A DNA stretch of 64,000 bases, from the NCBI GenBank assembly GCA_037310415.1, contig CP147780.1, forward strand, positions 1,056,001 to 1,120,000. Reading direction: 5' to 3'. Both the position numbers and the translations under genes were made by a program. Below the pieces are notes generated by a model. That model had not been told where the DNA came from. It made no database searches and was given only the letters and a program-made list of their open reading frames with translations. Of this stretch, positions 14,838 through 41,699 are shown piece after piece (position 1 is the first letter of the stretch; each line of letters opens with the position of its first letter). The stretch is from Candidatus Atabeyarchaeum deiterrae. Lineage in GTDB: Archaea; Asgardarchaeota; Atabeyarchaeia; Atabeyarchaeales; Atabeyarchaeaceae.

Positions 14838-14844
14838 TCCAGAG

Positions 14845-23985: not shown

Positions 23986-24290
23986 GTTTTTGTTTGAGGA
24001 GCATTTTCTCGGCTCGGTTTTGTTTTTCCGCATTTTCTTTTGGTTCTTCACGCGCGTGAAATGCATGTTTTCTTGGGTGGTATTTGAAGTCCACGCGGGG
24101 CATTTTTCGGTGGTGCATTCTACGGTGCCGTAGACTGTTTTGCATGATTCTTCGGATTCTGTCTGGTTTTGCGTTTTTGTTGCAGTTTCGGTCTTGTTTT
24201 GCATTTTTCGGTGGTTCTCATAGCTTCTCCTTGCACGGATCTGTGGGTCGGCAGACGTGTGGAGTTTTGGCTCGGGGCCCGTGGTCGCCT
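23986..24290 (+). other. A-poor, T/G-rich non-coding tract with palindromes and a 15-nt direct repeat
   Basis: About 30 A in 305 nt by hand count; palindrome TTCACGCGCGTGAA (24047-24060); hairpin TCTACGG-tg-CCGTAGA (24119-24134); GCATTTTTCGGTGGT at 24100 and 24201. Confidence 0.75.
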
Positions 24291-24397
24291 TGTTAATGGG
24301 ATCGAAAGTATTGAATCTTGCGATCTTCAACAGACTTAAATACGTGGAATGTTGGAAGTATTTTCAATGCTAAAATTAGGAGGGTGAGAGAGGAAAA

Positions 24398-25075
24398 ATG
24401 TTGAAGCGTTCTAGTCGTCTAGCTTTGATAGTGGTTACGACTATTCTCGTTTTTTCGCTTTCGTTTGCAATGTCCGCTCGACCAGTGTCTGCGGGTCAGA
24501 CGTTCATTAATTCGGTTCGATTTGGGAATGATTTTGGTTACGGAAGGATCAACGTCGATCTCTACCGCCAAGGTACTGGATACAGTTTCAAGGTGACATT
24601 CTACTACGAGATATGGGTGTGCACAGACGTACGTTACTACCCCCAAACGGGACATATAGACAACCTGAGGCTGGGGGTCGACACTTGCAACGCGGCGCAC
24701 ACGCAATGGTACCACCAGCTATATTCTGGATTAGTGATGTTGACTGGGGTAGTTAACCAGTATTTTGAAATTGGTGGTACGCAGGTTGCCACTAAGTATC
24801 ATGATGGTGTGAAGTATACAGTCTACTACGGGACAGTGATCTTTGGACCGACCTATAATCCGTACAGTGGACAATACATCAACGCCTACATGATGTGGGG
24901 TGCATGGAATATCAACATGATATATTTCGAAATCATTGTGAGTATGAATTATGCCGAGCTTGCGAAAGATCAGAATGCGTTAATAATGGACTATTTCCGA
25001 GATCTGTACTCGAACGCGTACCAAGTTACGTACTTCCCGGACGTATTCTTCTTAGCTAACCCGCCCTGGCAATGA
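24398..25075 (+). CDS. Secreted Tyr/Gly-rich protein of unknown function
   Basis: Signal peptide MLKRSSRLALIVV..PVSA; GGAGGGTGA RBS; T-tract downstream. Confidence 0.75.
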   Translation: MLKRSSRLALIVVTTILVFSLSFAMSARPVSAGQTFINSVRFGNDFGYGRINVDLYRQGTGYSFKVTFYYEIWVCTDVRYYPQTGHIDNLRLGVDTCNAAHTQWYHQLYSGLVMLTGVVNQYFEIGGTQVATKYHDGVKYTVYYGTVIFGPTYNPYSGQYINAYMMWGAWNINMIYFEIIVSMNYAELAKDQNALIMDYFRDLYSNAYQVTYFPDVFFLANPPWQ

Positions 25076-25148: not shown

Positions 25149-25526
25149 GGGTCTTCTTAAGACCGTATTGATTCTACGATAGTCGGAGAAGAGTTAGGTG
25201 ATGAGAGGACTTCTAGTGTTAACTGAGGGTATGTTCAACAATGCAGGTTGCGCCAGGTCAGGAATTCGTGGAGAAGTATGTTGAGAGGATGAATTCTCCT
25301 TGTAGTGTTTGAACTCTTGATTGCTGCTCTCTATTTTGCATTTAGAGGGGTAAGCTAACTAGTTTTGCCCTGGTGTTCTTGGGGCGTTTTTGGCGCTTGC
25401 TCTTCTTGGCTTGCCAGTTGCTTCTGTTAGAAGCGTTTGTCTGGAGTGCACTTTGTTCGTGGGACTATTTTTCTCTTGTTTACGTCCATCTGAGGCGACT
25501 TACCCTTAGTTTTTTTGTTTTGGCTC

Positions 25527-25696
25527 GGCGCCCTATGCCTTCGCCCTAAAAGAACAAGTGGCGTATGTTCGGATAACGTTCCACGTGCGCCTACTTTGTT
25601 CTTTTCCCCCTCGCCTCTCGGCTCGGGGTCGGGCTCAGGCAGGGCGCCTCGCAGTGTACGGTCAAATCACCTCTCTCTTTCGTTCGAGGTGATTTG
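25527..25696 (+). ncRNA. Structured leader: branched stem-loop plus RBS-sequestering hairpin
   Basis: Stems 25527-34/25641-48, 25548-57/25596-605, 25560-68/25583-91 (two G-U pairs), a side hairpin at 25607-28, and a perfect 11-bp stem 25663-73/25686-96. Confidence 0.65.
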
Positions 25697-25697
25697 C

Positions 25698-26828
25698 TTG
25701 TACAATAATGATGATTGTTCTCGTGGCTGTGGTTCCTTTGGGCGTCGAAGGTATTCGTTGAGGGTTGATGCTCTTTCCGCTGAGGAGTGGGCTTATCTTC
25801 GTGGCTTGTACCTCGCTGATGGGACTAAGCGTGTTACCTTCTGTCTTGGTGGAGATGAGGTGGAGTTGTCGCTGAAGCTTGTTGATATGCTAAACCGCGC
25901 TGGGTTGAAGCCGATTGTGAAGAAGGATCCAGATGAAGAAATGTTGCTTGTGTCCGCGTGGTCGTTGAGTCTCCTTGAGTTTCTGGGGCGCAAAGGCACT
26001 CTGCTGCATGATGTTGAGGCGCGGAGGAGGTTCTTCGAGGAGAACAGGCTGATGAGTGTTGGGCTGGGTGTTCCCTTCATTGCGGGTCTGATAGACGGTG
26101 ACGGCTTCTGTCAGGTGAGTGTTGTTGATGAGCTTGGTCCCTTCGGCAAGGTGAACAGGTGGAGGTGGGGGTTTGCTCAGAAGAAGTTGCCGTTTCTCCT
26201 CGACTACTTCAGGGAGTTCGTTGAGTCTCTCGCACTCAAGAGCGTAAGGATTCGTGTAATGAGGAATGGCGTAGTTGTTGCAGAGATTTGTCAGGCTGGC
26301 ATCAAGGCTCTACTCAAGGCTGGCATAGCCTCCCACTCAGTGAAGGCGAACCAGTGGGTGAAGAGGGTGGAGGAGCTTGACAAAACGAGTAGGCGAGTGA
26401 GCTATTTGACTTCTAATGAGGTTGCCGAGAAGCTGAGAGTAAGTAAGCCAACCGTGTGGCGCTGGCTCAAAACTGGAAAGATGCGATGTGCCCAGTGGAC
26501 TGCGAGGAGGCTGAAGAACGGCAAGGAGACCTATCTGTCGCATCGTTACATCCATGCGGAGGAAGTTGAGCGCGTGAGGTATGAACTTGAAGAGGAAAGA
26601 GCGCTATTGAAACAAGTCAGGGAAGATGGATACGTCAAGTTCAATGATGTGGCTAGAGTTTTGAACGTTCCGAAAACCACTCTGCGACGGTGGTTTCGGA
26701 GCGGAAGAGTGCAAGTTACATTAGTCCGAGGGCGCAATAGAGACCGCGGGTACTGGATGCCGAGGAAGGACGTTGAGCGCCTCAAGCGCCGGGTCCGCAA
26801 GTCTGAAGACTTTTTGAAACGTCGCTGA
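25698..26828 (+). CDS. Double-motif LAGLIDADG endonuclease-family protein with two C-terminal excisionase/MerR-type HTH domains
   Basis: AYLRGLYLADG and FIAGLIDGDG; YLTSNEVAEKLRVSKPTVWRWLKTG and VKFNDVARVLNVPKTTLRRWFRSG; TTG start after GAGGTGA. Confidence 0.85.
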   Translation: MYNNDDCSRGCGSFGRRRYSLRVDALSAEEWAYLRGLYLADGTKRVTFCLGGDEVELSLKLVDMLNRAGLKPIVKKDPDEEMLLVSAWSLSLLEFLGRKGTLLHDVEARRRFFEENRLMSVGLGVPFIAGLIDGDGFCQVSVVDELGPFGKVNRWRWGFAQKKLPFLLDYFREFVESLALKSVRIRVMRNGVVVAEICQAGIKALLKAGIASHSVKANQWVKRVEELDKTSRRVSYLTSNEVAEKLRVSKPTVWRWLKTGKMRCAQWTARRLKNGKETYLSHRYIHAEEVERVRYELEEERALLKQVREDGYVKFNDVARVLNVPKTTLRRWFRSGRVQVTLVRGRNRDRGYWMPRKDVERLKRRVRKSEDFLKRR

Positions 26829-27234
26829 GAATGTTGCACGGCAGATGCAACATGCTGCTAGTCGCTATCAACGCGTCTGGCTTGATGGGGTTTGTGGCTC
26901 CTATCTCCAGAAGTGTCCTTATACACCAGAATCATTGGATTTGTGAGCTTCTCGCACATTTTGACCAATACCAGAACTTGTTTTGTGAAAGACCAAGACT
27001 ACACAGAGAAGCTGAACAAGTTACGATGCTGGTTCAGAAAGTGCTCCAGAGTTTTGCGTAATGAAGTATTCTGGTCAATATGATACGAACTAGTTGCATA
27101 TTGCGAGTTTTCTGATTGGATTATGATTGGGATCATTTATAGATATGCAGGTTTATAGAGGATTGATTAGTCATTTCCTAGATGCTTGGCAATAGCGCAT
27201 TTAACATATCATCTGGTGATGGTACTACTGAACT

Positions 27235-28590
27235 TTGAATAGTGGTGGTGTGCAGATCGGAATGGGAGATTCTTCTCTAGCTTCCCAAAGTGGCCCTTGT
27301 ATGGAATTGATAGTGATCTCGCCAGAGCCTGCAATGTTTGAAAGGACAATCATGGTTGACACAAACTATTTGATGCAGGTCAATCAGGAAGACATTATGG
27401 AGATGTTGTTCAACCCTTGCTACGAGGACAAGTTTACTGAAGCTAGCAAACTGATAAAGAAGCAAATGATAAAACTGCTTCGAGACGTTGTCAACCGCAA
27501 ACTTGACTTATGTTTTACAAACCACATTGCAAGGGAATTTGTGTGTCGGCAATGCATGAAAAAAGGTCTAATCAAGATCTACATGAAGTACATTACGGTT
27601 TTGACCCCGAGAGAGGCATTTGAATCTGAGTTCTTGAACGTCTCTGCAGCCATCAATTCTCAAATCCCAGACCCTTTGGGAAAGGGTGAGATTAACGACA
27701 CGTATTCTTATATTCTGGCAGCATTGGCAGGATCGAAGTATTTTGTGACTGAGGACAAGCACGTTACGTCAATCTACAAGTATCTGGCTGGTATCAGAGA
27801 AGGAGATTCAAACCTCAAAGCCAAAGAAATCAAAAACGTGAACGAGACGTACAAGATACTCAATTCACAAGAAACTGCATTCCCGATCGATGATGTTCTC
27901 AAGGCGCTTTTTGGAGATCTTGGGTCATTGCCTGTTCCAATCAAGATTGGGAGCCTGGGGGATAGCTTGCCAAACGTATTGGATAAGGAGGATGTTTTAG
28001 TACGAATTCTCCGGTTTCTGCAAGAGATTGGTCACCTAAGGGCAAGTTCCGCGAAGGTCCCAGATGGTTGGGACGAATCGCTTGTAGAAAAGTCAAGACT
28101 GCGGATTTCGGCCGTGGCTAAATCAGTAGGCATATCAGATTTCGAAAAAGTAGATCCTAGTCGTTTTGGTGCGAAACTTAGGGAGAGAATTGCAGACTGG
28201 ACAGGAGAACCTTCGGATCAGCAATTGGCAGAGGATCTCGGCGGCAAGGTTAGTGATCTGCGGGCCATCATGTACAAGGAGGAGGTGGGATACATGGATT
28301 GGGAGGATCAGTTCTCTGCCGAGGAACCTGTGAAGGAGTTCAAGGTTGAATGCGGGAACTGTCGGAGCCATGTCGAGTTGGAGGCTTATTATGACGGCGT
28401 CGTAGAAGTTGATGATAGGGAGATGGGTACAGAGAACCTTCATGAGTGGTCTGGTGAAATTGAATGTCCATCGTGTGGGAATCTGTTGGAGGTTGTCTAT
28501 AGAGTTTGGGAATATCCTGTGATGTGTTTCAACACTGATGAGACAGAGTGCGAAGGCTGCAAATTGCTACCTGAGAAGAAATCAAGCTAG
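27235..28590 (+). CDS. PIN-domain protein with C-terminal Zn ribbon (start possibly later)
   Basis: IMVDTN..E..EINDTY..FVTEDKH acidic PIN pattern; CGNC..REMGTE..CPSCG..WEYP. Confidence 0.65.
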   Translation: MNSGGVQIGMGDSSLASQSGPCMELIVISPEPAMFERTIMVDTNYLMQVNQEDIMEMLFNPCYEDKFTEASKLIKKQMIKLLRDVVNRKLDLCFTNHIAREFVCRQCMKKGLIKIYMKYITVLTPREAFESEFLNVSAAINSQIPDPLGKGEINDTYSYILAALAGSKYFVTEDKHVTSIYKYLAGIREGDSNLKAKEIKNVNETYKILNSQETAFPIDDVLKALFGDLGSLPVPIKIGSLGDSLPNVLDKEDVLVRILRFLQEIGHLRASSAKVPDGWDESLVEKSRLRISAVAKSVGISDFEKVDPSRFGAKLRERIADWTGEPSDQQLAEDLGGKVSDLRAIMYKEEVGYMDWEDQFSAEEPVKEFKVECGNCRSHVELEAYYDGVVEVDDREMGTENLHEWSGEIECPSCGNLLEVVYRVWEYPVMCFNTDETECEGCKLLPEKKSS

Positions 28591-30618
28591 TAATTGATGG
28601 ATAATCTTTCGAGATTCAGCGGAAAGCTTTCGCCATTCTGCAATCGCTCGGGCGAACGGCGATACGACTCTTATTCCTTTCTCAAGAAACATCAGTCTGT
28701 TAGCATCGGAAATATCTGAAAAGACGACAAGATAAGGAGCAATTGTCTTGTCTTCCCTAGACTTTTGTAAGGCATTGATCTTGTTCGCTGTCTGCTTAAT
28801 CGTTTTTTCGATTTCGCCCACATGTAGTTTTACCTTACATTCGTAGAAGTCAACCGTCTTTCCATCGATTTTCTCGGCAAGAACATCAATCTGCTCACCC
28901 TCCTCTTGCGTGTCACATCTTACCGATGCATACATGCTGCCTTTTTCCTCCACCAGCCAATCAAAGAACAGGTACTCGAAGAACTTGCCCTTAAGATTGC
29001 CTAGCGTGTCTTCGGTTCTCGCTTTGAGTTCAAGCAAGTTGAGCCTTCGCAATTGATCCATCTCAGCTATTCTGTCAGGAATGTTTATCTCAGTCTCTTC
29101 GTAGACTACCGTTTCAAAGACAGATGACACGCTTCGTTTTCCCAGATACTCCCTAAAGATCTCGTTGTCCACCTCTATCTCCCTGACTTCTATCAGATTC
29201 CGCTTTTCATAGCTATTCAGCAGGCTCTTAGCTTTCCTATATGATGTGATGCCAAATCCTGAATAGTCACAGGCACAGTCGAAAAATACCAGCCAACCTG
29301 AATAGTCGGAGATGCCAAGGCTACTAACAGCCTCAATCAGAATGCAATAGCTGTAATCGTATTCCTTCCTCCCCTTTTCACCTACTGGGTGCTTAAATAC
29401 TCTTATCTGAACTTTCTCAATCATATGCTCCAGCTTACGCTGTTCTACAACTCCCATCACCAAAGGGACAAATGCTGGAACACCATTGAAGACCGTGAGT
29501 TCTTGGGCATCCAAAACATTGACTTCGTACCAAAGCAAATAGTAGTTTAACTGCTTCATCACTGAAGCCTTATCTGTCTTATGCATGTAGTCAGGGTCTG
29601 TCAATCCTTTTGGTTTCAGCAGTTCACCGAATTCTTTCTTGTCAAAGCTTTCTGAGAGGACCAATATATTGTCATCAGCTCCGCGAACTGCTAGCTGATT
29701 CTCGAGGGGCAGAGATATCTCATTGTTTATCCTGTCAAAGTATCCGTCAAAAACATACCAACTTTTTCGCTCCGGGTGTCTTTCTTCACGGCGTTGAACA
29801 CTCTTCTTCCCGCTACTCGTAAGAGAGGGATCCAGCTTATGCAAATCCACGAGACAACTTTTTCCATATTGCTCTTTCCCGACTAGTCTATACCAGAGAT
29901 ATTGGAGAGCGTAGACATAGCCTGCATAGGCGCTCTTCAAAAACTGTTCTTCAGTAACGGGGTTCAGAACTGTCGCAGCGAGCTGACCTTTGGGAAAGCC
30001 ACGTTTAGTGTCATTTAGGTCTATTAGCGTATAGGCGATCGTTGAGACTTTGAGCGCTTGACTTTCAGTGACGTTCTCAACGGCAGAAATAACATGAGGC
30101 ATAACAACCTGACTTATCGAATCAAGAAAAGCAAGTAAATGCTTCGTTGAGGTTTCGAACTGTTGCCACTCCTCTGATTCCCTAATCCCTCTCGCGGCTT
30201 TCCAGATTCTCTTTATGAAGATTGTCTTTTCACAGGTGTTAGGTATATCATTTAGTGGGATACCAGTGAACCTTGCTCTGAAGAACGTATAGTCCTCAGT
30301 CAGATCCAAACCGGTTCCCATAGTGACTGAACGAATTAGGCACCTTACGCAAGTATCAACCAGAAACCTATAGCCAGCGAGCAGCTCATGCTCATCCTCA
30401 ATTCCATGGTATTCTTTCAACCAGCCTCTGAATGCTTGGGTTCCTAACGCGATCCTCAGGACACTCAACCACGCTAGAAACTCTCCAATCGCATTTGTGA
30501 ACACGGTCGCGTCGCTATTATCTTTTTTCAAAATGCAGTCCCCAATATCAAGATGACTGGGCGATTTTCCTAAATATATGTTGCATATGTCTGATTGGGG
30601 ACGCCTGAACGAAGTCAC
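28582..30618 (-). CDS. Large protein with C-terminal PD-(D/E)XK restriction-endonuclease-like domain
   Basis: KGKFFE..QIDVLA..FYECK; N-terminal ~530 aa not recognised. Confidence 0.7.
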   Translation of the reverse strand: MTSFRRPQSDICNIYLGKSPSHLDIGDCILKKDNSDATVFTNAIGEFLAWLSVLRIALGTQAFRGWLKEYHGIEDEHELLAGYRFLVDTCVRCLIRSVTMGTGLDLTEDYTFFRARFTGIPLNDIPNTCEKTIFIKRIWKAARGIRESEEWQQFETSTKHLLAFLDSISQVVMPHVISAVENVTESQALKVSTIAYTLIDLNDTKRGFPKGQLAATVLNPVTEEQFLKSAYAGYVYALQYLWYRLVGKEQYGKSCLVDLHKLDPSLTSSGKKSVQRREERHPERKSWYVFDGYFDRINNEISLPLENQLAVRGADDNILVLSESFDKKEFGELLKPKGLTDPDYMHKTDKASVMKQLNYYLLWYEVNVLDAQELTVFNGVPAFVPLVMGVVEQRKLEHMIEKVQIRVFKHPVGEKGRKEYDYSYCILIEAVSSLGISDYSGWLVFFDCACDYSGFGITSYRKAKSLLNSYEKRNLIEVREIEVDNEIFREYLGKRSVSSVFETVVYEETEINIPDRIAEMDQLRRLNLLELKARTEDTLGNLKGKFFEYLFFDWLVEEKGSMYASVRCDTQEEGEQIDVLAEKIDGKTVDFYECKVKLHVGEIEKTIKQTANKINALQKSREDKTIAPYLVVFSDISDANRLMFLEKGIRVVSPFARAIAEWRKLSAESRKIIHQLLA

Positions 30619-30680
30619 CTTTTAAGTGTCCAGTTCTGTGCAAGAAGTCGTCAACACATTTGCGGCGAAAGCCCAAGGGG

Positions 30681-30860
30681 GAGTGTTTCCAGTTGATGAG
30701 TGCCAAGCAAGTTGTTGCCTTGTGCCATCTCTTGTATGAAGCGTTATGCTGGCGTGTCAGTGGTAGCAGTATGTAGTCCATGTGGACAGGCAAGTGGCGC
30801 TACACTCTCACAACCAAAGTTAAGCGCCTCAGACGCAAGCTGTGTAGGTCTGTCGACTGC
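30681..30860 (+). pseudogene. Degenerate excisionase-type HTH remnant resembling the LAGLIDADG-HTH C-terminus
   Basis: Reads LMSAKQVVALCHLLYEALCWRVSGSSM*SMWTGKWRYTLTTKVKRLRRKL, with TAG at 30774. Confidence 0.65.
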
Positions 30861-31082
30861 CATGAATGCTGTGGAGATGTTCGGTGGTGCATCCAACACA
30901 TGACTTATTTCTTGGCGCGCTGCATGTGCGTTGTGACCATCAAGGAAAATAGAGCGAATAGTTGTGGGAGTCGACGAACGATCGACAAGCCGAGGTAGCT
31001 TCGATAGAGGATCCTCAGAAGGCGGTGTTGTCTAGCCACTTGTGGCATCGCAATATTCTTATTAGCTGCTCCTGCGACATAT

Positions 31083-31844
31083 TTGTTCATGAATGTTGAG
31101 ACCCTTAAACGGAGAATCACCTCGCTAATTAAAGAATTCCAGAAGGTGGAATCAGCGGTCCGCGCCTGGGAAAAGCGAGGCAGTTTGGCTAAGTCATTAG
31201 CCAGGGTTCTTTACTATATTGGCGAACCGTACAAACCTGAGCCAAGAGTTCGCACCAGTCCCACGCTTTATGCCAAACTCAAGGACATTATTGATAACTC
31301 GTTGAAGTTGCTGCCAGACAACAAACAGTATTTGCTTACTTCATGGAACCAGTGGCGGCGCAGTGTTGGAGAGGATGATGTCGATTCGTTGGACTCTACT
31401 CAACTTGGAGACGGAATAAAAATTCTCGACGATATTTCGGAGTTCGAAAAGAAGTCTGAAGAGAAGAAGGCTCCGCCTTCACCGAGCAGAGTCATACGCG
31501 AATGTGGAGGACTCATCGATCCGCAACTTTACGAGCTTTGTGCAGGGAAGGATTACCACGATGTGGTGACGAACGCCTTCACAGTCTTGGAGGACAGGAT
31601 ACGCAGCAAAGCGGGGCTTGACCCAAGCCACACTGGAACCAAGTTGATGGACGAGGTATTCAATCCTTCAACTGGACTACTTGTTTCTGGATCGACTCAC
31701 AATGAACGTGAATTTTTTTACTTGATTTTCCGCGGGGCTCACGGGTTTCTTCGCAATCCACCATCTCATCGCATCACAGGCGGCGAATCTGAGATTGAGC
31801 CAGTCGAAGTGATGTGTTTGGTGGATTACCCCTCAAAATCCTGA
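31083..31844 (+). CDS. TIGR02391-family protein, probably frameshifted near the 3' end
   Basis: YHDVVTNAFTVLEDRIR..GTKLMDEVF..FRGAHGFLRNPPSH; terminal helix breaks at ~31830. Confidence 0.75.
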   Translation: MFMNVETLKRRITSLIKEFQKVESAVRAWEKRGSLAKSLARVLYYIGEPYKPEPRVRTSPTLYAKLKDIIDNSLKLLPDNKQYLLTSWNQWRRSVGEDDVDSLDSTQLGDGIKILDDISEFEKKSEEKKAPPSPSRVIRECGGLIDPQLYELCAGKDYHDVVTNAFTVLEDRIRSKAGLDPSHTGTKLMDEVFNPSTGLLVSGSTHNEREFFYLIFRGAHGFLRNPPSHRITGGESEIEPVEVMCLVDYPSKS

Positions 31845-31976
31845 TGAGAGCATCAATTCGGAAATAATGAGTTTCTCGATGTCGCGTAATTCAGCAAGGC
31901 AGGTGGCAGTTTTGGAGGAGAAGGGAGCCTCGATTGCATCATGGAATTGAAAGGTTCGCTAGAGGAGTGTTAAAAG

Positions 31977-32888
31977 ATGGGGAGAACGTACTCGAATATA
32001 AGGCATAAAAGGCAATCCTACAAAGAACTGTGGTGGATTTCCTGGCTCTTTGGGTTGCCAGTAATTTTGGGAACTGCCGTGGCGATTTCGACCAATTCAT
32101 GGGCAACAAATCCTGAAGCATTCCTAACTTGGTGGATTATTAGCGAAGTTGCCGTAGTTCTAATCACGATAGTATTCTATTCACCCCGTTGGGTGAAACT
32201 TTTCAAGCACAAGCATCGTTTTGTGACAATAGGGCACCATAGATTGTGTAGAGTATGTGGATTAGTAACGGACGCGGAAGGCAAGATTGTTGGGAAGCTG
32301 CAGAAAGTGGACAAGAACAGGGCTCTCGAGAAATACAAAACTGATCAATTAATGAAAGCTGAGGAGCAGAGAGCAGAAGAGAGAAAAAGAGAAGAGCAAC
32401 TGCTTGAGAGGCTCGGAATCCCGAGACCCTTAAAGACGGAGAAGAATGACCAAGAAACCAAGCGCGTATCCAAAATTGTTCAAAGCGATGTGATTGGACG
32501 CTTTGCAGACCCAGAACAGAAACGTGTGGAAGCTGGTCTCTCCTTTGACAGAAAAGACTATTGTTCCACGGTGAACAACCTCAACACTGCTCTGGAATTG
32601 GGACTAAAAGAACTGCTGGAAATACCTGTAACAACATCGAACATCAACACTGCGAACATCATCGAGATTTGGGTTAGCAATCACTATCCTTGTTCTCTGT
32701 TTCTGTCTGAGGTAAGGAAGCATGTCTTGGATCTCGATAATAAAGTCAAGCATGAAGGATACATACCTTCACGAAAAGATTGTATCGACGGGATGAAGAG
32801 CCTGGAGGATCTATTGAAGAAGCTAAGAGAATTGAAGTTGACGGATGATATGAAGAGTAAGCTCCACGTGGGATTGAAGCTGAGATAG
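31977..32888 (+). CDS. 2TM plus coiled coil plus HEPN-like domain protein
   Basis: Two N-terminal TMs; ALELGLK..LDNKVKHEGYIPS (variant of RxxxxH). Confidence 0.6.
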   Translation: MGRTYSNIRHKRQSYKELWWISWLFGLPVILGTAVAISTNSWATNPEAFLTWWIISEVAVVLITIVFYSPRWVKLFKHKHRFVTIGHHRLCRVCGLVTDAEGKIVGKLQKVDKNRALEKYKTDQLMKAEEQRAEERKREEQLLERLGIPRPLKTEKNDQETKRVSKIVQSDVIGRFADPEQKRVEAGLSFDRKDYCSTVNNLNTALELGLKELLEIPVTTSNINTANIIEIWVSNHYPCSLFLSEVRKHVLDLDNKVKHEGYIPSRKDCIDGMKSLEDLLKKLRELKLTDDMKSKLHVGLKLR

Positions 32889-33013
32889 CGTCTTGTCTAG
32901 TCAAGGTGGTTTCTTGTCCCAATCGCTTCTCATTCTAGGGATTGCTATTCCTATCCGCAAGACCTGTCCCGAGAGTGCCTTGTCTAATTGTTAAACGAGG
33001 TCGCTGCTGGTCG

Positions 33014-33694
33014 CTACTTCAATTCAACAAAACTGAAGAACAGATGATGAATACGAAACGGGGAGCGATCCTTCTCCCTTAAGTGCGTCGAGACGTAATG
33101 TTCCCTAAAAGCAGAAACGGAAGATGCCAAAGTCATGACTTCTACTATTCTTTCTTTATCAACTCGAGTCTTTATTTCTTTGACTATTACGGCAATCCTC
33201 CCAGTATTAATATAGCCAATCAATGAGCCGACTGTGCCATTTGCACAGTACCTCCCTTCAATATAGCGATACAACCCCTGCTTAATGTATTCCCTATAGC
33301 TTCTACTGTTGCCCTCGGCTAACAGTTTGCATTCGAAACCAAAAAACGCCTCTTTTTCCCAACGATCCCTAAAACAAAAATCGATGGTTGGTGGTTTTCC
33401 TCTATCCTTAGCGTGCTCTCGATCAATCTTTTGATTTATGGGGACAACAGCCGGTGGGACGCTGGATGCAGACCAAGCAATATTGACCTCTTTAAAAAGC
33501 TCTTCGGTGATTTCGTCCTCTGACATTTGTGGTTTGACTATGCGATTTCTATACAAGGTAGTGTATGCTTCGCAAACGATTTCGAGAAGTCTGGTGATGC
33601 CCTTGTCCCCTAGATGCTTAGCAAGGTCAAAAGGGCTGCCGGTTCTGTAACCTTCTTGCAGAGAGTCATAAGTCATTGACAATTGCTTCCCCAT
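33014..33694 (-). CDS. PD-(D/E)XK nuclease partner of the adjacent methyltransferase
   Basis: EDEIT..TIDFCF..FECKLL..YIKQGL; overlaps the MTase stop. Confidence 0.7.
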   Translation of the reverse strand: MGKQLSMTYDSLQEGYRTGSPFDLAKHLGDKGITRLLEIVCEAYTTLYRNRIVKPQMSEDEITEELFKEVNIAWSASSVPPAVVPINQKIDREHAKDRGKPPTIDFCFRDRWEKEAFFGFECKLLAEGNSRSYREYIKQGLYRYIEGRYCANGTVGSLIGYINTGRIAVIVKEIKTRVDKERIVEVMTLASSVSAFREHYVSTHLREKDRSPFRIHHLFFSFVELK

Positions 33695-36657
33695 TCTTCC
33701 ATGATATCTCTATAGACTCTGTCTGCATCTGAGATTGCTGATGACTTCGTCCAATATCTCATCTGATTGGGCTTGATGATATATACACGATTTTTGGAGT
33801 ATCTTCGAAGATGCCTTCTAACGTAAACGCCCCCCGCCTTCTCGTCAATTAACTCTTGGTCCAATTGTTTCAGAACTTTATCCATCTCTTCTTCGCCTAG
33901 CTCTTCGTTCACAATTTCCCGACCATTTGGCACTAGCTGAAGAGAGATCATGCGAAGAGGTCCTTTTGCCGAATATGTTGTTCCGATGAAACTTTGACCT
34001 GGAGGTGAGAATTGGTGATTGAGAGTTTGGCACAAATTTCTCAAGTATTTCTTGACATCAGATTCAGCGGAAGGCTTGATTGCGTCAGAGTCTCCTTTAA
34101 GGCGGAAATAGTCAAGCGTAAATCTTATCGCATCTGCCACAAGTGCCTTCTCCATCTTGTCCAGACCATAGAGATTCATCAATCTGCAATTCTCGGCTTC
34201 TCGAAATTCCTCGTCCTTTGCGAGTCTTTCGAGGAATCTCATGTCAAGGTTGCCTTTAAGAATCCCCTTGGGAATGGGAATGCTCATGATTTCGTTTTTC
34301 GCTAATTCGTCTCTCTCAACGAGCCACCTGCCGCTCGTGAGCATTGCGTAATACAATGGTAAATCTGAGTTTATTGTTTCGCAGACAGCTATAAGGTCAC
34401 TAAGACACCGTTTATCGGAGTGTATTCCAATTATGGATTGTGGAAATACGGAATCTTCGACCATTACTGCGGATATTAGACCGTACCCTTTTCTAGGACT
34501 CTGTTTTATCAGTAGGTGCGGTCCTTTGTATATCTGCCTTTTTTCTGTTCTCGATCTGATGAAACGGTTTTCAGAACATCGTTTCAATGACTTGCTTTCC
34601 ACAATATACTTCTGAAGATTTTCCGCCGTGACCTCCAGTTTTCCAATTAATTCCTTAGTGAAATACCTCCTATTTCCAACGATATACCCTTCCCCATGGA
34701 TCCAACCGCGCTCACGAGCAACCCGATCTAGAGTTGGATTAGACGATAGTTTTCTGATCAATTCATAATCTCTTGGCGACCCCCACATCGCTGTTTTCCA
34801 GATTGTTTCAGATGCCAGTGCTTCCCTGAGAGGTATCTGGGCAATGTCTTGAGGTTCAATTATGAAGGATAATTCATCTTGTAGCGTAAAACTGGGTTTA
34901 GGAGAACAATAGAAGATTGACTCATCTTCTGGAGGAGGTGAAGGCGAAAAAACTATCGCAGCTCCTGGGCCTACAGCATGCGAGAAGAGTAAGTGCCTAA
35001 GGGCAGAGAAGTTGAATATCGCTTTAATCTCATATGTAGAGAAAAAGGCCTTCCTAAATTGCGAATTGCGAGATGAACGATTGAAAAGTAATGCTTTACT
35101 GGACACAATCATGCAGACTTTTCCTTCAGGCTTGCAAAGGTCAGCACTCTTCCAGAGGAAGACTTGACAGATTTGTCGGTCTCCGATTTTCTTGCGACAT
35201 AATTTGACGTATCTTTCCGCGGACTTTGAAAGTTTGCTTTCCCAAGGCGGGTTGCCCACCACCAAATCGAATTTATCATGAAGTTTCGGAATGTTTTCAA
35301 GGGAATCGGCGACAAAGAGATTACCGCCGACCAACCGCTCAAATTTCACCTCATCCCAGATGGTTTTAGGCTCTAGATAGTCGCATACAGTTAGGTAGAG
35401 ACTTAAGGCAGAGATTCTAATCGCTTTTTCATCAAGGTCAACACCAAAAATGCTATTCTTGAGTATTTTGACAAGTTCTGAGGGAGTAGGATTTTGGTAG
35501 CGATTCGATTTCTTCCAGCGAGCTACTAATCTTCGGTAACCTTCGACCAAAAAGATCCCTGAACCACATGCTGGGTCAATTATTCGCATGCTGATGTTTG
35601 GGTCTGAAAGAGGCATGACTTCATCCATTAAGAAGGCGACTAGGTGATACGGCGTATAGTGAATGCCTCTCGGCCACACTTCTTCGTTTTCCTTTTTAAG
35701 TGTGAGGAATTGTTCGTATATGCTACTTATCAATTCGACGGGTATCACGTCAAAAGAGTATAGAGGCCATAGGACCATTTGGCGAGTATCAAGATATTCT
35801 TCGCCCTTTAGCATCCTTTGCAGTAAGTCTAGGTGATCTTGCTTGATTATATTTTCTTCATCTTGCTCAACTACGAAAATATCTCCGTTGAATTTTTCAT
35901 CGAGATATCTAAAGAAGTCGTATGCCGCTTTCTTTGCGCTCAGTAAATCAGTAAAGCAAGCTGCGTCGCAATGGAACCGACTAAAGAAACCCTGTGGAAA
36001 GACACCTCGTCCTTGCGTATCTCGTCTGTCTTCAAGATATTTGATAAAAATCGAGCGAACAAGGATGGAATGAACAATTTTGGATGATAGTCCAGCACCG
36101 ATAAGTTTTCGCCTCATATAGTCAAGATTCTTGAGCAACATCTGAAAAATGCTGCTATCTGTTTTGAAAATACTTATGTTTCTACGCCAATAGTTGCCTG
36201 TTTCGAGTTCAGCTCTTTCATAGTTTCTGAACGATTTTCTCTCATTTTCGACTTCCGAGAAGACTTTGAGTTCTTCAATGAGGCCAGCTTTGTCGTCTCC
36301 TTTTTTGGGAGGTTCCAGATTATTATATATTCGAACTGCATCTGGCAGAACAATAAATAGAAGTGGGGCTTGGCCCATGTTCCATGACAGTTTGTGCAAT
36401 TCAGCTATTTTGGAAGCGGTCGGATGCTCCATTAGTTTGAAGTATATTAACGGTATGGAAGACCCGCCTCTCTGAGGTCTGAGAAAGTATATTGCATCAA
36501 TACCCAGCTTTTTTATTGAGTCTGCAATAATTTGCCTGACATAGGCATCTTCGGTCGAGAGAACATCAGTGACGAGTCCATTATATTTCGAGAAGTCGAG
36601 AAGAGAACAAACCTGTTCAAAGGATGCCTGACTCTTTGGTTTGCCGTTAACTGACAT
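33673..36657 (-). CDS. N6-adenine DNA methyltransferase, type IIG/Eco57I-like, with target-recognition domain
   Basis: ELISSIYE, HYTP, IDPACGSGIFL and VGNPPW. Confidence 0.9.
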   Translation of the reverse strand: MSVNGKPKSQASFEQVCSLLDFSKYNGLVTDVLSTEDAYVRQIIADSIKKLGIDAIYFLRPQRGGSSIPLIYFKLMEHPTASKIAELHKLSWNMGQAPLLFIVLPDAVRIYNNLEPPKKGDDKAGLIEELKVFSEVENERKSFRNYERAELETGNYWRRNISIFKTDSSIFQMLLKNLDYMRRKLIGAGLSSKIVHSILVRSIFIKYLEDRRDTQGRGVFPQGFFSRFHCDAACFTDLLSAKKAAYDFFRYLDEKFNGDIFVVEQDEENIIKQDHLDLLQRMLKGEEYLDTRQMVLWPLYSFDVIPVELISSIYEQFLTLKKENEEVWPRGIHYTPYHLVAFLMDEVMPLSDPNISMRIIDPACGSGIFLVEGYRRLVARWKKSNRYQNPTPSELVKILKNSIFGVDLDEKAIRISALSLYLTVCDYLEPKTIWDEVKFERLVGGNLFVADSLENIPKLHDKFDLVVGNPPWESKLSKSAERYVKLCRKKIGDRQICQVFLWKSADLCKPEGKVCMIVSSKALLFNRSSRNSQFRKAFFSTYEIKAIFNFSALRHLLFSHAVGPGAAIVFSPSPPPEDESIFYCSPKPSFTLQDELSFIIEPQDIAQIPLREALASETIWKTAMWGSPRDYELIRKLSSNPTLDRVARERGWIHGEGYIVGNRRYFTKELIGKLEVTAENLQKYIVESKSLKRCSENRFIRSRTEKRQIYKGPHLLIKQSPRKGYGLISAVMVEDSVFPQSIIGIHSDKRCLSDLIAVCETINSDLPLYYAMLTSGRWLVERDELAKNEIMSIPIPKGILKGNLDMRFLERLAKDEEFREAENCRLMNLYGLDKMEKALVADAIRFTLDYFRLKGDSDAIKPSAESDVKKYLRNLCQTLNHQFSPPGQSFIGTTYSAKGPLRMISLQLVPNGREIVNEELGEEEMDKVLKQLDQELIDEKAGGVYVRRHLRRYSKNRVYIIKPNQMRYWTKSSAISDADRVYRDIMEEWGSNCQ

Positions 36658-36890
36658 CAGGGCTCACCTTCTGTGAAGGCATCTTTTCTCCACCAAATCC
36701 AAGTTCCTTTGGCTGCTCCCACTCTTTTGCCTCTGATGAGTCCGTCTCCGCGTAGGTCTCGGAGTCTCAGGAGTATCTTGTTCCTTGTTACATTCGACAA
36801 TATCTCCTGTAGTTCTCCAGTCTCCATTGGCTCGTCATGACTATTAATGATTTTGATGATGGCTTCGATCGTTCTATCATTTGGCTTCAT
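36657..36890 (-). CDS. Small wHTH regulator heading the R-M operon (ATG at 36890)
   Basis: PMETGEL..VTRNKILLRLRDLRGDGLIRGKRV..WIWW; stop overlaps the MTase start. Confidence 0.75.
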   Translation of the reverse strand: MKPNDRTIEAIIKIINSHDEPMETGELQEILSNVTRNKILLRLRDLRGDGLIRGKRVGAAKGTWIWWRKDAFTEGEP

Positions 36891-36918
36891 TGGTAGAGTC
36901 ACTTGTATTTTCACTAGG

Positions 36919-36960
36919 AAATGTATATATAACACTATTTAAAGTAGCATATATAGATTT
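36919..36960. promoter_or_regulatory. Inverted repeat flanking a TATA box; candidate operator
   Basis: AAATGTATATAT-n18 (containing TTTAAA)-ATATATAGATTT, 11/12 complementary. Confidence 0.55.
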
Positions 36961-37015
36961 GTAAGGGGATGCTCATACCCGGCAATTTGCACATTAATAT
37001 GGCTGATCCGACTTA

Positions 37016-37644
37016 GTGTTTACTGGTGAGAGCATGGACATCATGCTATATCTCAGGGAATTTGTCATCAAGATCCCCTGTGGAATCGAAATCTATAGTG
37101 AAGCGAGCATCAAATATGAGTTGGCTTTTTACCTTCGAGGCGTATTAGGCAAAAAATACAAAATTCAGCTAGAAAGAAACATAGATTTCTTCCAGCTCTC
37201 AAAAGAGAAATATTGGAAAAAAGAAATGGATATTGTGGTCTTCACTCCGGATGAAGAAGGAAACACTGCATTGAGTTGAAATTCCCTGCCCAAGGTCAAT
37301 ATCCTGAGCAGATGTTTAGTGCCTGTAAGGACATAGCTTTTCTGCAACAACTGGTAGAATCAGGTTTCAACGAATGCTACTTTATGATGTTTGCCAATGA
37401 CCCACTATTCTATTCAGATAAAGGCGATGATGGGATTTACAGAATGTTCAGGAAGGAGAAGTTGATCAAAGGAGAGATTAGAAAGCCAACAGGAAAGAAA
37501 GATGAGATATTGCATATCGATGGAGAATATAAGATAAAGTGGGAAACTTTAGAAAGCAGTCTAAAGTTTTTCATCATAGAGGTCAAAACCTGGACGACAG
37601 AGTTATTCGATTTTCTTTGCCGAGCGCGCATGGAGTGTGAATAG
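37016..37644 (+). pseudogene. Frameshifted PD-(D/E)XK nuclease-like gene (ORFs 37016..37279 and 37276..37644)
   Basis: EMDIVV in one frame continues as HCIELKFP..GQYPEQMF in another; shift near 37255-37263. Confidence 0.75.
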
Positions 37645-37656
37645 TCCCCCTTTCTG

Positions 37657-37721
37657 GTCTTTGGAGGGGGTCATTTTCCGACGCTGAGGTTTAGCGCCTT
37701 AAGGGTGAACTTAGTAGGAAG
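37657..37721 (+). repeat. Remnant of the HTH terminal helix
   Basis: Reads GLWRGSFSDAEV*RLKGELSRK; GTTTAGCGCCTTAAGGGTGAACTTA is 20/25 identical to the 40318 copy. Confidence 0.65.
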
Positions 37722-38263
37722 CAGAGAACGCTAGAAATGCCAGCATAAGTGTTGAATAACGCACTCAGCTTGATTCTCGTCCACAACCTATTGACCTATA
37801 GGGATTTTTGAGTGTTAATGAGAGGGGGAAAACTAAGAGAGAAGATAATGGCACCTGATATAAAAGACTCAGCCGAATATGCAAGACCAAAAAGAAAGTG
37901 TGAGACGCGCATTTGGTTCGTCATTTCTTAAGCCCCTGTTAAATAGAGTCTTACGCGATAAGGAGCGAAAGTCTAGCAAGTGACAACTGAAGGTCTATTG
38001 GAGTCGTATCGTTTCAGGGATTGGAAAGAGTGAGGCGGAGAGTTTTCTTTTATGTCTAGTCTTCTGGTTTTCTTTTTCTAAGAACCATCTCGCCGTCCAA
38101 GATTGGACGGGAAGAGAGTCGCTGAGAGCTACGTTTTAGCACTCCAAACCGGCAAAGGACGATGATGATTAGAAGGGTCAATGGCTTGTCAGGCGAACCA
38201 CACAACATCATGGGTCGTTGATACTTCGGTGATAGGTGCGCCCTCTTGGATGTGCACGAATCG

Positions 38264-39016
38264 TTATGGCCAGATTCCACCTGTTCGAACAAAGACTCCT
38301 CCAAATAGCCATAGAAGCAAAACTACTATGAATGCAGACACCAGATCAGGAGGTGATTGCAGACCACTAGGGACACCTATAAGTTGCAGGCACCTCACAA
38401 AAGTGAAGATCGCGGTAGCACCCGTCAAAGCGAAGAACAATCCACCCCAAACGAAGTGTCGCGCCACCGCTTCGTTTACTCTTTTGTCCTTGGCTTGCTT
38501 CTTCCGTGTTCGGAGTCTACTTTGAAACACTCCAAGAAGATTCTTCCACATGGAGCTAATAACCACGTAAATTATGATAATCAACACAATTATGAATAAG
38601 ATGAGAAGAAAGAGACTCAATAGAACTCTTGTTTCCAGAAAGGGGTAATATGAAATCATCACGCCAATCAACGGGATGACAAATGTCTCCCCTCCAGTCA
38701 GTGCTACAACCGATAGGAGAAATAGAAGGAACTTCCATGCACCCAGTCTTTCAGAAACGTTGTCTTCCATTATCCCGCAGTAAACGCCCACATAAAATGG
38801 ATACACGCTCACAGAAGCAATAAGGAAGGGTAAGTAGTCTCTAAGGGCGCCAAGGTAAATGTTCAGCAAGGTAAAGAGGAAGACGATGATTGTGAATGTG
38901 AACAAGAAGGTAGTGTCAAATCAGGAAAGAGCACTTCTCTCTTCCATGGGCTCCCTTAGCCTATTTGTTCGGGAAGCGATCGGCTTCTGCCGCCTTCGCG
39001 TTCGTCTTTCAGTCAT
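38264..39016 (-). pseudogene. Multi-pass membrane protein gene with an in-frame TGA at 38921-38923
   Basis: ATG at 39016 is in frame with ORF 38264..38905; MTERRT..ALS*FDTTFLFTF..; about 6 TM. Confidence 0.55.
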
Positions 39017-39150
39017 TCTTGCCCCTTCAACCCTGCCATAGTAAGTGTCTTCGATTGTTGCCTGCTAGGCTAAGACTTGGATTATATATATTTGGTCCCC
39101 GATAACCTAGTTGGTTATCCAAAAAGGCGTGAGGGGCGTAGTGAAGGATA

Positions 39151-39894
39151 TTGAACACGGATGAGACAGGTGGGGACGTAACTATCCAAGGGGATTTAGA
39201 AAGGCGCAAGCCAGTGGACTCTGAATTAGTCGTAATTAAGACCCGGCTAGAGAATTTCGAGAAAGAAATAGAAGAGTTAGTGAGGAAGAAGAAGCAAAGC
39301 AAAGAGTATCAGGATGAGGCATCGTCATGTATCGGCAAAGTCAAGGAGGAACTAGATGATACCCCGAGATATCGCAGAAGAAAACTACTAGGAAGATATG
39401 GGAAGGATCTTGGATTCCTTTCTCAACAGATTGATGAGAGAAGCCATCAAATCTGGACGCTCGGCGCGCTTTTTGTACCAATATCTTTCCTGATCTTCGC
39501 ACAAACAGTCACGCTAATGGGAGGTCTCGATGTTACCACGCTTGTCTGGAGATTTCTACTGGAGATCGCGTCCTTCATTTGCTACGGCGCTTGGTTTCAT
39601 GTATATCGTAGAGCTCACAGATTTAATGTACTCAGCTACCCACGAATTCATACCTTGGAGAAAACGTTAGGTTGTTCAGGACACTTGTATTTGGGTGACC
39701 TTCGTAATAGATATGGGATTAGCACTAGTCCCCCCAGAATGTTCAAATGGACATTCGGACTGCTTGCCCTCCTTTGGACGATATACATTCTTTCGCCCAT
39801 GATAGTCCTGCTCAACTTTATTGCTTTGATCGGAACTGGGGTGTTTCAAGCATTCATCGTGATCATGTTGATTGGCTCTCTCGACGATCCTTAG
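39151..39894 (+). CDS. Coiled-coil plus multi-TM membrane protein
   Basis: Charged coiled-coil N-terminus followed by 3-4 hydrophobic segments. Confidence 0.65.
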   Translation: MNTDETGGDVTIQGDLERRKPVDSELVVIKTRLENFEKEIEELVRKKKQSKEYQDEASSCIGKVKEELDDTPRYRRRKLLGRYGKDLGFLSQQIDERSHQIWTLGALFVPISFLIFAQTVTLMGGLDVTTLVWRFLLEIASFICYGAWFHVYRRAHRFNVLSYPRIHTLEKTLGCSGHLYLGDLRNRYGISTSPPRMFKWTFGLLALLWTIYILSPMIVLLNFIALIGTGVFQAFIVIMLIGSLDDP

Positions 39895-40317
39895 ACGAAG
39901 ATACACTGCCCTTCTACTTCTCATTGATGGCCATGTTTATAGGTCAGCCTATCCTAGATTTCATTTTAGTCGTGAAAAAAATGAAATTGGGCGTAAATCG
40001 GTTCTTCGAAACACTAAAACACAAAACCAAAACTATCATAACAATAGTCAGCGAAGGGTTTTTCGCGTCAGTTGGTTGGCATTTGTTTAATATTCTGATA
40101 TCAAACATACTTTAGACGAAAATAGAATGGAAGATGTTCAGAGCAGTAATCTATTCATAATTGTTGCAAAGACAATAATTGTAGGCTTCAATAGTTCGTG
40201 TCCTAGTAAATTCTAGCATGTTATCGAATTGTGTTATTATAAGAGTCTGTAATTCAAGAAAATGAAGAAGCAAATTAAATGAATTCCTCCTCTTTTTTGT
40301 TAGCGTCGGGTGCCGCG

Positions 40318-40359
40318 GTTGAGCGTCTCAAGCGCGAACTTAAAGGTGACGAATCATGA
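40318..40359 (+). repeat. Remnant of the HTH terminal helix ending in a stop codon
   Basis: GTTGAGCGTCTCAAGCGC is 17/18 identical to 26772-26789; reads VERLKRELKGDES*. Confidence 0.75.
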
Positions 40360-40494
40360 ATAACCGCCCCAGATGTTAGGTGGCACCCCTAACATATCCC
40401 CTGAGGTTGTCGGGTATAGGTCAGAGCACTGATCAGAGCGCCGAAAGGACCTCGGAGGAGGTGCTCAAGGAAGCTCATGTTTCACTATCTTTGT

Positions 40495-41619
40495 TCAAGT
40501 CAGTATCTTTTGTGGGGGAGGAGAAGAAAGTATTTTCAACGTGTCGAAGGCGATAGGTTCGTCGATTCTCCAAGGGATAGTCAAGCATTTCTTCGCTGGA
40601 AGACGAACTCTCTCCGGGATTGACCGTGCTTCCGGGTTTAGTATGATCAGCAGAAACTTCGGGTTGAGTTTGGCCGCATCGAGGAACGCATTGTTGATGG
40701 CTTGGTCTCTGAATGAGTAGCCTATCGACAAGTGCGCGTCTCCTTCCATGAGTTCGCGTCTAAGTGCGGAGAAATATGTTGCATAGGGATCCTGTGATAC
40801 ATATTTCTCGTCCATGGGGTAGACCATCAGTTTGCCAGCTACCTTCTCGCCGTGGAAGGAGACGGAAGAAGGTTCCTCTCTGCGCTGGACTATCTTGCCA
40901 TCCTCAAAGATGAAGCGATCGATTGAGCCATGCAGCTTTATTAGTTGTATTCGCACGCCGCCTATGATCCCGTGAGGAGTAAATATGGGCTGTCTTTGAG
41001 CTTCGTTGAGGGAGAATCCATCTGTCAAGTGCTTACCTTTGCTTTCGAAGTACCTCTCTATTGCGAGATCGTAGTTTGTTGTTGCTATGGCGAAGTTTTT
41101 GAGTTCATATTTCTCTCCGTTGGCGTATACGTCTATAGATTGACCGAAGGGCATTATGGCAAAGAGCTTGTCGTATGTCTCCCCTGCCTTGTCGGCGTTG
41201 ACTTTATTGCATTCTTCTGATATCACTTTCTTCGCCCACTCGATGGCATCTTCGATCTCGGGATCTGCTTGGGGTAAGAGTTTGCTGATTGGCGTTTCCT
41301 TGACTGGTGTGCCGCTTGGCATGGCTGGTGTTTCGGCGAGAGAGGCAGCAACATAGCTGGCAAATGGCCCCGCTTCTTTCAGCGCACGCTGCGGTCTCAG
41401 TAGACCATTCAAAACAGAGAAGACCGTTTCAATGTCAACCTCTCTCTGTTCGTAGCCAGATCTCACTAGTTGTCTCTCAACGGAATCTATTAGCTCGAGC
41501 GCATGATCAAGTCCTTCCTTCTCCAGTCTTGCCTTCACCGCTTTATAGAGTCCTAGCATGGTTTCCACACCGAAGACCTTTGAGATTCCAGCTCCGACAA
41601 ACAACATTGCCAACACCAC
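40495..41619 (-). CDS. SIR2-like (SIR2_2) protein, candidate defence NADase
   Basis: FVGAGIS, TTNYD, KLHGS and IGYSFRD. Confidence 0.88.
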   Translation of the reverse strand: MVLAMLFVGAGISKVFGVETMLGLYKAVKARLEKEGLDHALELIDSVERQLVRSGYEQREVDIETVFSVLNGLLRPQRALKEAGPFASYVAASLAETPAMPSGTPVKETPISKLLPQADPEIEDAIEWAKKVISEECNKVNADKAGETYDKLFAIMPFGQSIDVYANGEKYELKNFAIATTNYDLAIERYFESKGKHLTDGFSLNEAQRQPIFTPHGIIGGVRIQLIKLHGSIDRFIFEDGKIVQRREEPSSVSFHGEKVAGKLMVYPMDEKYVSQDPYATYFSALRRELMEGDAHLSIGYSFRDQAINNAFLDAAKLNPKFLLIILNPEARSIPERVRLPAKKCLTIPWRIDEPIAFDTLKILSSPPPQKILT

Positions 41620-41699
41620 AAAAGCTCTGTCTCATACGTCAAGAAGTAAGCGCGCGCGCTAATCCCGACTGGATGCGTGTTCTATGCTGGTATATACTA

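Follow-up and report, generated by a model that had tools for sequence, protein, structure and literature searches.

Why does the 3' end of a single gene recur, without the gene, between blocks of largely defence-related cargo downstream of it? The question is raised by a stretch of 64,000 nucleotides (nt), referred to here as the window, that covers positions 1056001–1120000 of the complete 2.76-Mb genome of Candidatus Atabeyarchaeum deiterrae (CP147780.1). This organism is an Asgard archaeon, a member of the group that holds the closest known prokaryotic relatives of eukaryotes; to our knowledge, the mobile elements of these archaea have barely been charted. The gene encodes a LAGLIDADG nuclease fused to two helix-turn-helix (HTH) domains. 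An earlier interpretation made from the letters alone (the sequence-only reading) had proposed that new blocks insert into the 3' end of this gene, thereby swapping its terminal DNA-binding domain and perhaps its specificity. We compared the locus with the genomes of two other Asgard archaea, Atabeyarchaeia-1 (CP147779.1) and the isolate LC30, and with public sequencing data.

The motif in question is found exactly where it was first reported, at 26772, 30819, 37689, and 40318, always on the + strand. Each copy opens a 3'-end module of about 85 nt, in which an 18-nt core is followed by a stop-containing tail of 8 to 13 codons, then by a GAATGCCACC box, and finally by a hairpin. The core encodes VERLKR and forms the near-palindrome TTGAG-CGC-CTCAA. 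The hairpin (ATGTTnnn/nnnAACAT, with a stem of 8–9 bp and a loop of 5–7 nt) lies 35–45 nt 3' of each core copy; it is perfect in the first and last module and decayed after 30819 and 37689. Only three perfect ATGTT...AACAT hairpins exist in the whole genome, one of them outside this locus. The gene and its modules are as follows.

25689–26828, + strand: gene for a single-chain LAGLIDADG nuclease (379 aa) with two HTH_17 (Xis/MerR-type) domains; start codon GTG at 25689 or TTG at 25698.
26565–26582, + strand: core-like motif closing the first HTH, read from the sequence as an intragenic paralogue of the core.
26772–26858, + strand: resident module; core 26772–26789, apparently foreign type-B tail with stop 26790–26828, hairpin 26831–26853.
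30681–30904, + strand: orphan module 1; core 30819–30836 (15/18 identical), type-B-like tail, decayed hairpin; 47.7 bits in the covariance model R2 described below.
37689–37776, + strand: orphan module 2; core 14/18 with GAG changed to TAG, type-A tail, decayed hairpin; 33.3 bits in R2.
40318–40400, + strand: orphan module 3; core 17/18, type-A tail VERLKRELKGDES, perfect hairpin 40373–40395; 44.7 bits in R2. The stop codon that this copy was said to retain is present as an in-frame TGA at 40357–40359.

The degenerate 13-mer of the sequence-only reading has four exact matches in the window, compared with 0.02 expected from shuffles, but this pattern was defined post hoc from these very copies; we therefore ran independent tests. 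On both strands of the 2.76-Mb genome the motif occurs just seven times; four of these sites fall within this 14 kb, and another closes a paralogous gene. Among 31 genome-wide matches of at least 14/18 to the core of the gene, the only one reaching 17/18 is the copy at 40318, and in a repeat search the four copies formed the largest direct-repeat family of the 20-kb region. BLAST of the L022 and L031 gene ends (two homologues introduced below) against the whole genome gave no match because the modules are too short and too diverged, and the test was taken over by the covariance model R2, which was built from five sequences of other genomes and metagenomes with no window sequence among them. 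In a genome scan, R2 placed the four window copies on top (47.7, 44.7, 34.4, and 33.3 bits), followed by a next match at 15.6 bits. Together with the independent counts, this result indicates that the recurrence of the motif is real and not due to chance. The looser copy noted earlier at 26565 scored 13.6 bits (E about 0.9) in this leave-out model and reads as the homologous position within the first HTH repeat of the gene.

Homologous genes from LC30 (L009 and L022) and from metagenome contigs (L029, L030, and L031) end in the same module, and their stems covary (GGGT/ACCC, GCA/TGC, and AGG/CCT). Changes on both sides were seen in five of nine pairs and 84% of cells pair, values matched by only 0–3 of 500 shuffles. 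The covariation, and the position of the module directly after the stop codons of the gene copies and 45 nt past an open reading frame (ORF) at 37689, would suit a functional RNA or regulatory signal, such as a stabilizer in the 3' untranslated region, a terminator, or an insulator, recruited repeatedly between operons; the position between blocks would then reflect function, not history. We consider this explanation very improbable. Decay of the hairpins and a nonsense codon speak against selection on the inner copies, no T-run lies 3' of the hairpins, and the 30819 copy occupies a divergent promoter region, not the end of a gene. In addition, Rfam and tRNA scans of the window returned no match, placing the element outside known RNA gene or intron families.

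The codons of the core (GTTGAGCGCCTC) are identical across lineages whose proteins share about 40% identity, and the other VERLK peptides of this genome use different codons, suggesting that constraint or exchange acts on the DNA of the core. The impression that many differences among the copies are silent was overstated: this holds for two of the seven core differences, and another is a nonsense change (GAG to TAG at 37692).

How DNA came to lie between the modules is best told by an ortholog on a Logan contig of a public run (L029), which has 81% nt identity to the window gene. This contig is colinear with the window from 25698 to 26788, i.e. through the last base of the core, and its next 26 bases match 40317–40342 (92%) and, more weakly, 37686–37713 (89%). 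A second contig, L030, behaves in the same way and aligned up to 26786. The left core copy has gene context on its left side only, whereas the right copy at 40318 has the ortholog-type tail (VERLKREL...), the stop codon, and the hairpin on its right side only and is preceded by unrelated sequence. The 13.5 kb in between is thus bracketed by 18-nt direct repeats that are identical at 17 positions. Its first part is a tail and hairpin of a different type, placed in register; among the compared tails, the one of LC30 gene L022 comes nearest (about 20/40 nt). The reading frame is kept with the new tail and stop codon, an arrangement that resembles an attachment (att) site. A transposon with target-site duplication was also considered and rejected, as local alignment found no terminal inverted repeats above shuffles at the ends of the insert or of the blocks. 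On sequence grounds, the ends of the insert are the signature of a single crossover between two modules inside the core. Because the insert is in register with a module of another lineage, it fits module-by-module recombination and not arbitrary DNA insertion.

By the same comparison, the gene now appears to carry a foreign 13-codon tail and hairpin with its HTH domain unexchanged. The proposed swap of the terminal DNA-binding domain was thus not borne out: the exchange starts after VERLKR, and only some 13 codons and the 3' hairpin were replaced. A change of specificity cannot be deduced either. Downstream content differs even between orthologs that are about 80% identical in DNA (77% in protein).

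Contigs from four public DNA runs showed the reference arrangement, with no joint at any core copy and no empty or circular form, although such contigs cannot reveal rare forms and hence do not demonstrate their absence. A weak joint from 37364 to 39254 (side 21, depth 3.7) was below the reliability guide of the tool. PacBio HiFi and Nanopore data from the wetland of origin are mentioned in PMC11529989. A loose end at 26580 in run X2 was considered as a one-HTH variant and rejected, as its continuation comes from an unrelated organism (L063) and has no similarity to the window. In the wetland run X4, contigs break at 25580–25605 and 36769–36776, with depth falling from 15 to 9 to about 3; these breaks may reflect strain differences in island content, contig depths being coarse.

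Given its 92% identity to the tail of L029, orphan module 3 appears to be the displaced original end of the gene. The two inner relics have a different look. The stretch 30681–30860, earlier read as a whole decayed HTH, indeed translates as about 140 nt of a decayed HTH_17 (LMSAKQV...GKWRY...VKRLRRKL) with an internal stop; this relic most resembles the one-HTH gene L022, both before and after the core (28/40 in the tail), and the 37689 relic is closest to the metagenome gene L031. Since both are decayed and resemble other lineages, they were probably imported with cargo rather than displaced from the gene in situ. This suggests one recent 13.5-kb event on top of an older history. The proposal that new blocks enter at the 3' end of the gene therefore stands insofar as DNA entered at the core, as the colinearity with L029 indicates, but not as three successive local insertions.

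The same relics could be explained without any recombination at the core, as the remains of complete LAGLIDADG-HTH elements of different lineages that landed side by side, each with its own downstream cargo, and lost their 5' parts. The three orphans do resemble three lineages (L022, L031, and L029/L030), 40–140 nt of decayed, frameshifted HTH sequence precede the core at 30819 and in orphans of Atabeyarchaeia-1, and the family is multi-copy and mobile, its genes often being pseudogenes. Tandem decay, however, leaves unexplained the exact loss of L029 colinearity at the end of the core and the presence of the true tail 13.5 kb away behind a second core copy. It would also require at least seven independent deletions at three loci, each sparing the last 85–200 nt yet removing the leader and the LAGLIDADG part, and at 40318 homology begins with the very first base of the core. 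We found no remnants of a LAGLIDADG body or leader within the blocks, and beside the orphans only short, chance-level matches to the left-end sequence of the element. We regard tandem decay as possible but doubtful.

The reading that we favor, and to which we give an even chance of being correct, holds that the resident module recombined, within the core, with a module on incoming, probably circular, DNA. The module would act as a recombination hotspot, at which incoming DNA with its own module copy would cross into the resident gene inside the 18-nt core in a one-site, Campbell-type integration. Such an event would put 13.5 kb of mostly defence cargo behind the gene, provide the gene with the foreign 13-codon tail and hairpin, and leave behind, at 40318, its original tail and hairpin without a gene. 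The inner relics at 30819 and 37689 would be older products of similar events in other lineages of the family that arrived with the cargo. The sole candidate for the enzyme is the LAGLIDADG-HTH protein, which might, for example, cut the DNA in or close to the core and thereby promote recombination with DNA that carries a module. We infer that the recombination was site-directed rather than generic, and put forward its direction, the order of events, and the enzyme with the same reserve.

Several observations weigh against this reading. Pfam, NCBIfam, and PADLOC found no recombinase or integrase domain in any ORF of the island that houses the locus, and no integrase was detected in a related LC30 element (both described below), although a very divergent enzyme could escape such sequence profiles, and we know of no strand exchange by LAGLIDADG enzymes. 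Being L022-like on both sides of its core, the 30819 relic looks like the plain 3' remainder of a second gene instead of a hybrid junction. Preservation is best in the outermost orphan, a pattern that does not fit an in-situ series with the newest insert beside the gene. Orphan arrays are rare, being confined to three loci, with none within 10 kb of 20 other family genes. Both strands carry cargo genes, with upstream regions of their own, and a restriction-modification (R-M) segment of the cargo that is shared with Atabeyarchaeia-1 lacks module borders.

In a bolder form, which we think improbable, the LAGLIDADG-HTH protein itself would mobilize the element, which would represent a new, integrase-free and nuclease-driven class in archaea. 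The protein would break DNA at defined sites, both in its own 3' core and in the target genes of the element, and circular DNA bearing a module or gene fragment would integrate by break-stimulated recombination. If true, Asgard defence islands would be assembled by a categorically new counterpart of integron or island accretion, one that relies on a nuclease and needs no integrase; a nuclease driving such events would also amount to a compact, programmable-looking DNA-insertion system.

The fold of the protein bears on this role. Pfam found HTH_17 in two stretches (E 5e-15; 55.8 bits against a curated cut-off of 27), and LAGLIDADG_3 matched weakly, under its cut-off. The two LAGLIDADG motifs read GLYLADG and GLIDGDG; the aspartates closing both are kept, and D41, D133, and D135 are invariant among 15 family members. 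An AlphaFold2 model built on the 15-member alignment (mean predicted local distance difference test score 83.5) matched PI-SceI, I-DmoI, I-Tsp061I, I-AniI, and the WhiA N-domain (3hyj) in Foldseek with probability 1.0, the template modeling scores normalized by target being 0.5–0.65 for the first four. Model and matches both display the tandem alpha-beta-beta-alpha-beta-beta-alpha fold. By predicted fold and motifs, the protein is a LAGLIDADG endonuclease; cleavage and homing are predictions only.

Like the LAGLIDADG homing endonucleases I-DmoI, I-Tsp061I, and PI-SceI, the protein has a two-domain single-chain fold with its catalytic aspartates kept, and the family shares their selfish traits: multiple copies, patchy distribution, frequent pseudogenes, and an empty site. 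Unlike them, it is fused to one to three Xis/MerR-type HTH_17 domains, does not lie in an intron or intein, and is flanked by a conserved left region of about 400 nt including a leader and by the 85-nt 3' module. Part of the target gene is duplicated on insertion, an outcome that classical homing by gene conversion does not produce. The bacterial transcription factor WhiA likewise has a LAGLIDADG fold followed by a C-terminal HTH, as the Foldseek match to 3hyj indicates, but it is a conserved single-copy regulator that lost the catalytic acidic residues, whereas the present family keeps its catalytic aspartates and has 4–21 matches per genome, some with in-frame stops.

The gene is also preceded by conserved non-coding sequence, as follows.

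23998–24222, + strand: left-end region of the LAGLIDADG-HTH element family; 68–75% nt identity to sequence upstream of the leaders in L009, L031, and L003.
24264–24280, + strand: 17-nt repeat, copy 1, at the leader start; copy 2 lies at 25517–25533.
25516–25699, + strand: structured leader with a long hairpin at about 25551–25609 and a hairpin at 25665–25696 over the GAGGTGA before the start codon.

In five of the six copies the leader of about 180 nt is 77–94% identical at the nt level, and the most distant copy reaches 66%, although the proteins are about 40% identical, and RNAalifold predicted 38 pairs, six of them with double changes, including a conserved hairpin of about 25 bp. The same leader-bearing copies have the left-end region of about 220 nt in common, with a further short 78% match in L033. 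In L009 of LC30 and in the metagenome contig L031 the left-end region directly adjoins the leader, whereas in the window the two are separated by a 1.25-kb insert with an ORF (24398–25075) of no family match and with the 17-nt repeat at each side. A short sequence duplicated around an insert is the same signature as at the 3' core. We are dealing with a lineage-specific, multi-copy element with conserved non-coding ends, the 3' end of which was, at one locus, the entry point for 13.5 kb of defence genes.

Elsewhere, the gene family was seen in 3 of 41 genomes of the phylum (4, 7, and 21 matches), all belonging to one archaeal family, and several genes have in-frame stops; among 5.8 billion proteins only 11 clusters were found. 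A single-protein search for related loci came back blank, and an alignment-based scan did recover relatives. Two expectations of the sequence-only reading were confirmed among these homologues, in that the number of HTH domains varies from one to three and the C-terminal tails differ after the core. A third, hypervariable defence genes downstream as a family trait, was not: five other annotated paralogues lie among housekeeping genes, the LC30 copy described next is cargo-free, and the 20 family genes mentioned above have no orphans near them.

The LC30 copy (L056; contig C169, 1504–3955) is a 2.4-kb unit between CYTH and GPN-loop GTPase genes that comprises the left end, the leader, a broken gene, the module, and about 570 nt more; the LAGLIDADG-HTH gene is its only long ORF, and a small ORF of 82 aa is also present. 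It sits in the 5' part of the GPN-loop GTPase gene, with an orphan P-loop head adjoining its left end, and the empty site is found in both sister genomes, at 795732–797205 in the present genome and at 814877–816315 in Atabeyarchaeia-1. The window shows the same topology on a larger scale in a gene resembling acdA (ADP-forming acyl-CoA synthetase).

23614–23985, − strand: orphan 3' fragment of the acdA-like gene, at the left junction of an island of about 36 kb.
59789–60169, − strand: island-borne replacement for the 3' part of the acdA-like gene, at the right end of the island.

The orphan tail lies beside the left end of the element, and over 120 amino acids (aa) it is 82% identical to the C terminus of the intact gene at 59789–61243. 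The family thus behaves selfishly, as its multiple, often broken copies and a demonstrable empty site indicate, entering genes and bringing along the part that it interrupts.

Such a topology would also result if a tyrosine or serine recombinase, either divergent in cis or acting in trans, had escaped detection and used the 3' end of the gene as attB. In that case attL and attR would be represented by the two core copies, and no role would fall to the LAGLIDADG-HTH protein. The 18-nt direct repeats (17/18), the gene end restored by the insert, and the displaced end at the far side agree with this possibility, as does the recurrence of the topology for the whole island in the acdA-like gene and for the LC30 element in the GPN-GTPase gene. 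Tyrosine integrases have moreover been reported for other integrated elements in Atabeyarchaeia genomes (PMC11529989), a paper that does not mention the present family (LAGLIDADG occurs 0 times in its text). We nevertheless judge an unseen integrase unlikely, as no integrase domain was detected in the island ORFs or in the 2.4-kb LC30 element.

Outside the window, gene-less orphan modules were seen at two more loci, giving a total of seven orphans at three loci; at each locus all orphans are on one strand, and at most about 200 nt of the gene are kept. In Atabeyarchaeia-1 (L053, 1648000–1667999), orphans at 4938–5022 and 6517–6558 on the minus strand bracket a 396-aa ORF of no assigned family; the neighbors are defence-like (HNH, DndB/GmrSD-like, and HEPN genes), and no LAGLIDADG-HTH gene lies nearby on that strand. 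As at 30819, decayed, frameshifted HTH coding sequence (40–140 nt) is found upstream of the core. The LC30 contig C204 holds two weak orphans. Taken together, cargo capture at the module is real but occasional, and other cargo routes exist. Another region of Atabeyarchaeia-1 (L024, 1621000–1640999) has two family genes 13.5 kb apart on one strand (1159–2262 and 14699–16033), one with three in-frame stops and the other with three HTH domains.

Among known systems, the pattern is closest to island accretion at att sites in tRNA, tmRNA, or protein-gene 3' ends. In both, the insert restores the end of the target gene, the displaced end forms a co-oriented direct repeat at the far junction, relic gene ends from repeated use of the site lie between cargo blocks, and the cargo is largely defence. 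Here, however, no tyrosine or serine recombinase is detectable by sequence profiles, and the target is the end of a selfish nuclease gene and not of a housekeeping gene, the repeated unit including a covarying hairpin. With integrons (IntI, attI, and attC) the locus shares a fixed capture point beside one gene and short, structured, imperfectly conserved site relics in one orientation between cargo units. Integron cassettes are promoterless and co-oriented and each is followed by attC, whereas the blocks described here are multi-gene, use both strands, have their own promoters, and occur in three arrays only. The hairpin of 8–9 bp with a 5–7-nt loop differs from attC with its R''/L''-L'/R' boxes and extrahelical bases, and no IntI was found in any island ORF by Pfam, NCBIfam, or PADLOC. 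In operation, the pattern therefore resembles tandem island accretion and, less closely, an integron, but belongs to neither, as no recombinase and no attC architecture were found. Even if the findings are read conservatively, the 85-nt module can serve as a practical marker when the borders of variable defence cargo are sought in this lineage.

The cargo itself is arranged as follows.

27235–30618, unstranded: cargo block 1; two genes without a Pfam match.
31083–37644, unstranded: cargo block 2; TIGR02391/Hypoth_Ymh, a 303-aa protein of no assigned family, a 226-aa protein, a type IIG R-M enzyme, and three small ORFs.
38181–40115, unstranded: cargo block 3; small predicted membrane proteins with weak holin and 8xMP Pfam matches.
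40495–43565, − strand: SIR2-like and GmrSD genes (Pfam) past the last module.

Pfam supports the earlier assignment of TIGR02391/Hypoth_Ymh, type IIG R-M, SIR2, and GmrSD; PIN and restriction endonuclease genes and HEPN, also named there, have weak Atlas leads only, which for block 1 point to a PIN-like protein and to an ATPase with an Mrr-type nuclease. HTH_20 matched one of the small ORFs in block 2 weakly, below threshold. The stretch 32992–36708, with the type IIG R-M gene and the 226-aa gene next to it, has 84% nt identity to positions 551524–555251 of Atabeyarchaeia-1, which lie at a different site. The segment in that genome may correspond to the R-M-bearing integrative and conjugative element described in PMC11529989. 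The attachment motif AATTAACTTAT given in that paper was not present in the 6.7 kb examined near the shared R-M module.

Finally, several features concern the island of about 36 kb (23986–60169), which is an insertion within the acdA-like gene (intact at 59789–61243, − strand). The last 120 or so codons of this gene are supplied by the island in recoded form (82% aa identity). At the opposite end, the ORF at 23614–24330 (− strand) consists of 114 island-derived codons fused to the orphan acdA-like tail. Outside the studied region, the island carries many further defence-type genes. At 47678–54096, a second type IIG R-M gene is followed by a 279-aa ORF and an nSTAND3 NTPase, and a 1394-aa HerA-like ATPase is encoded at 54937–59121.

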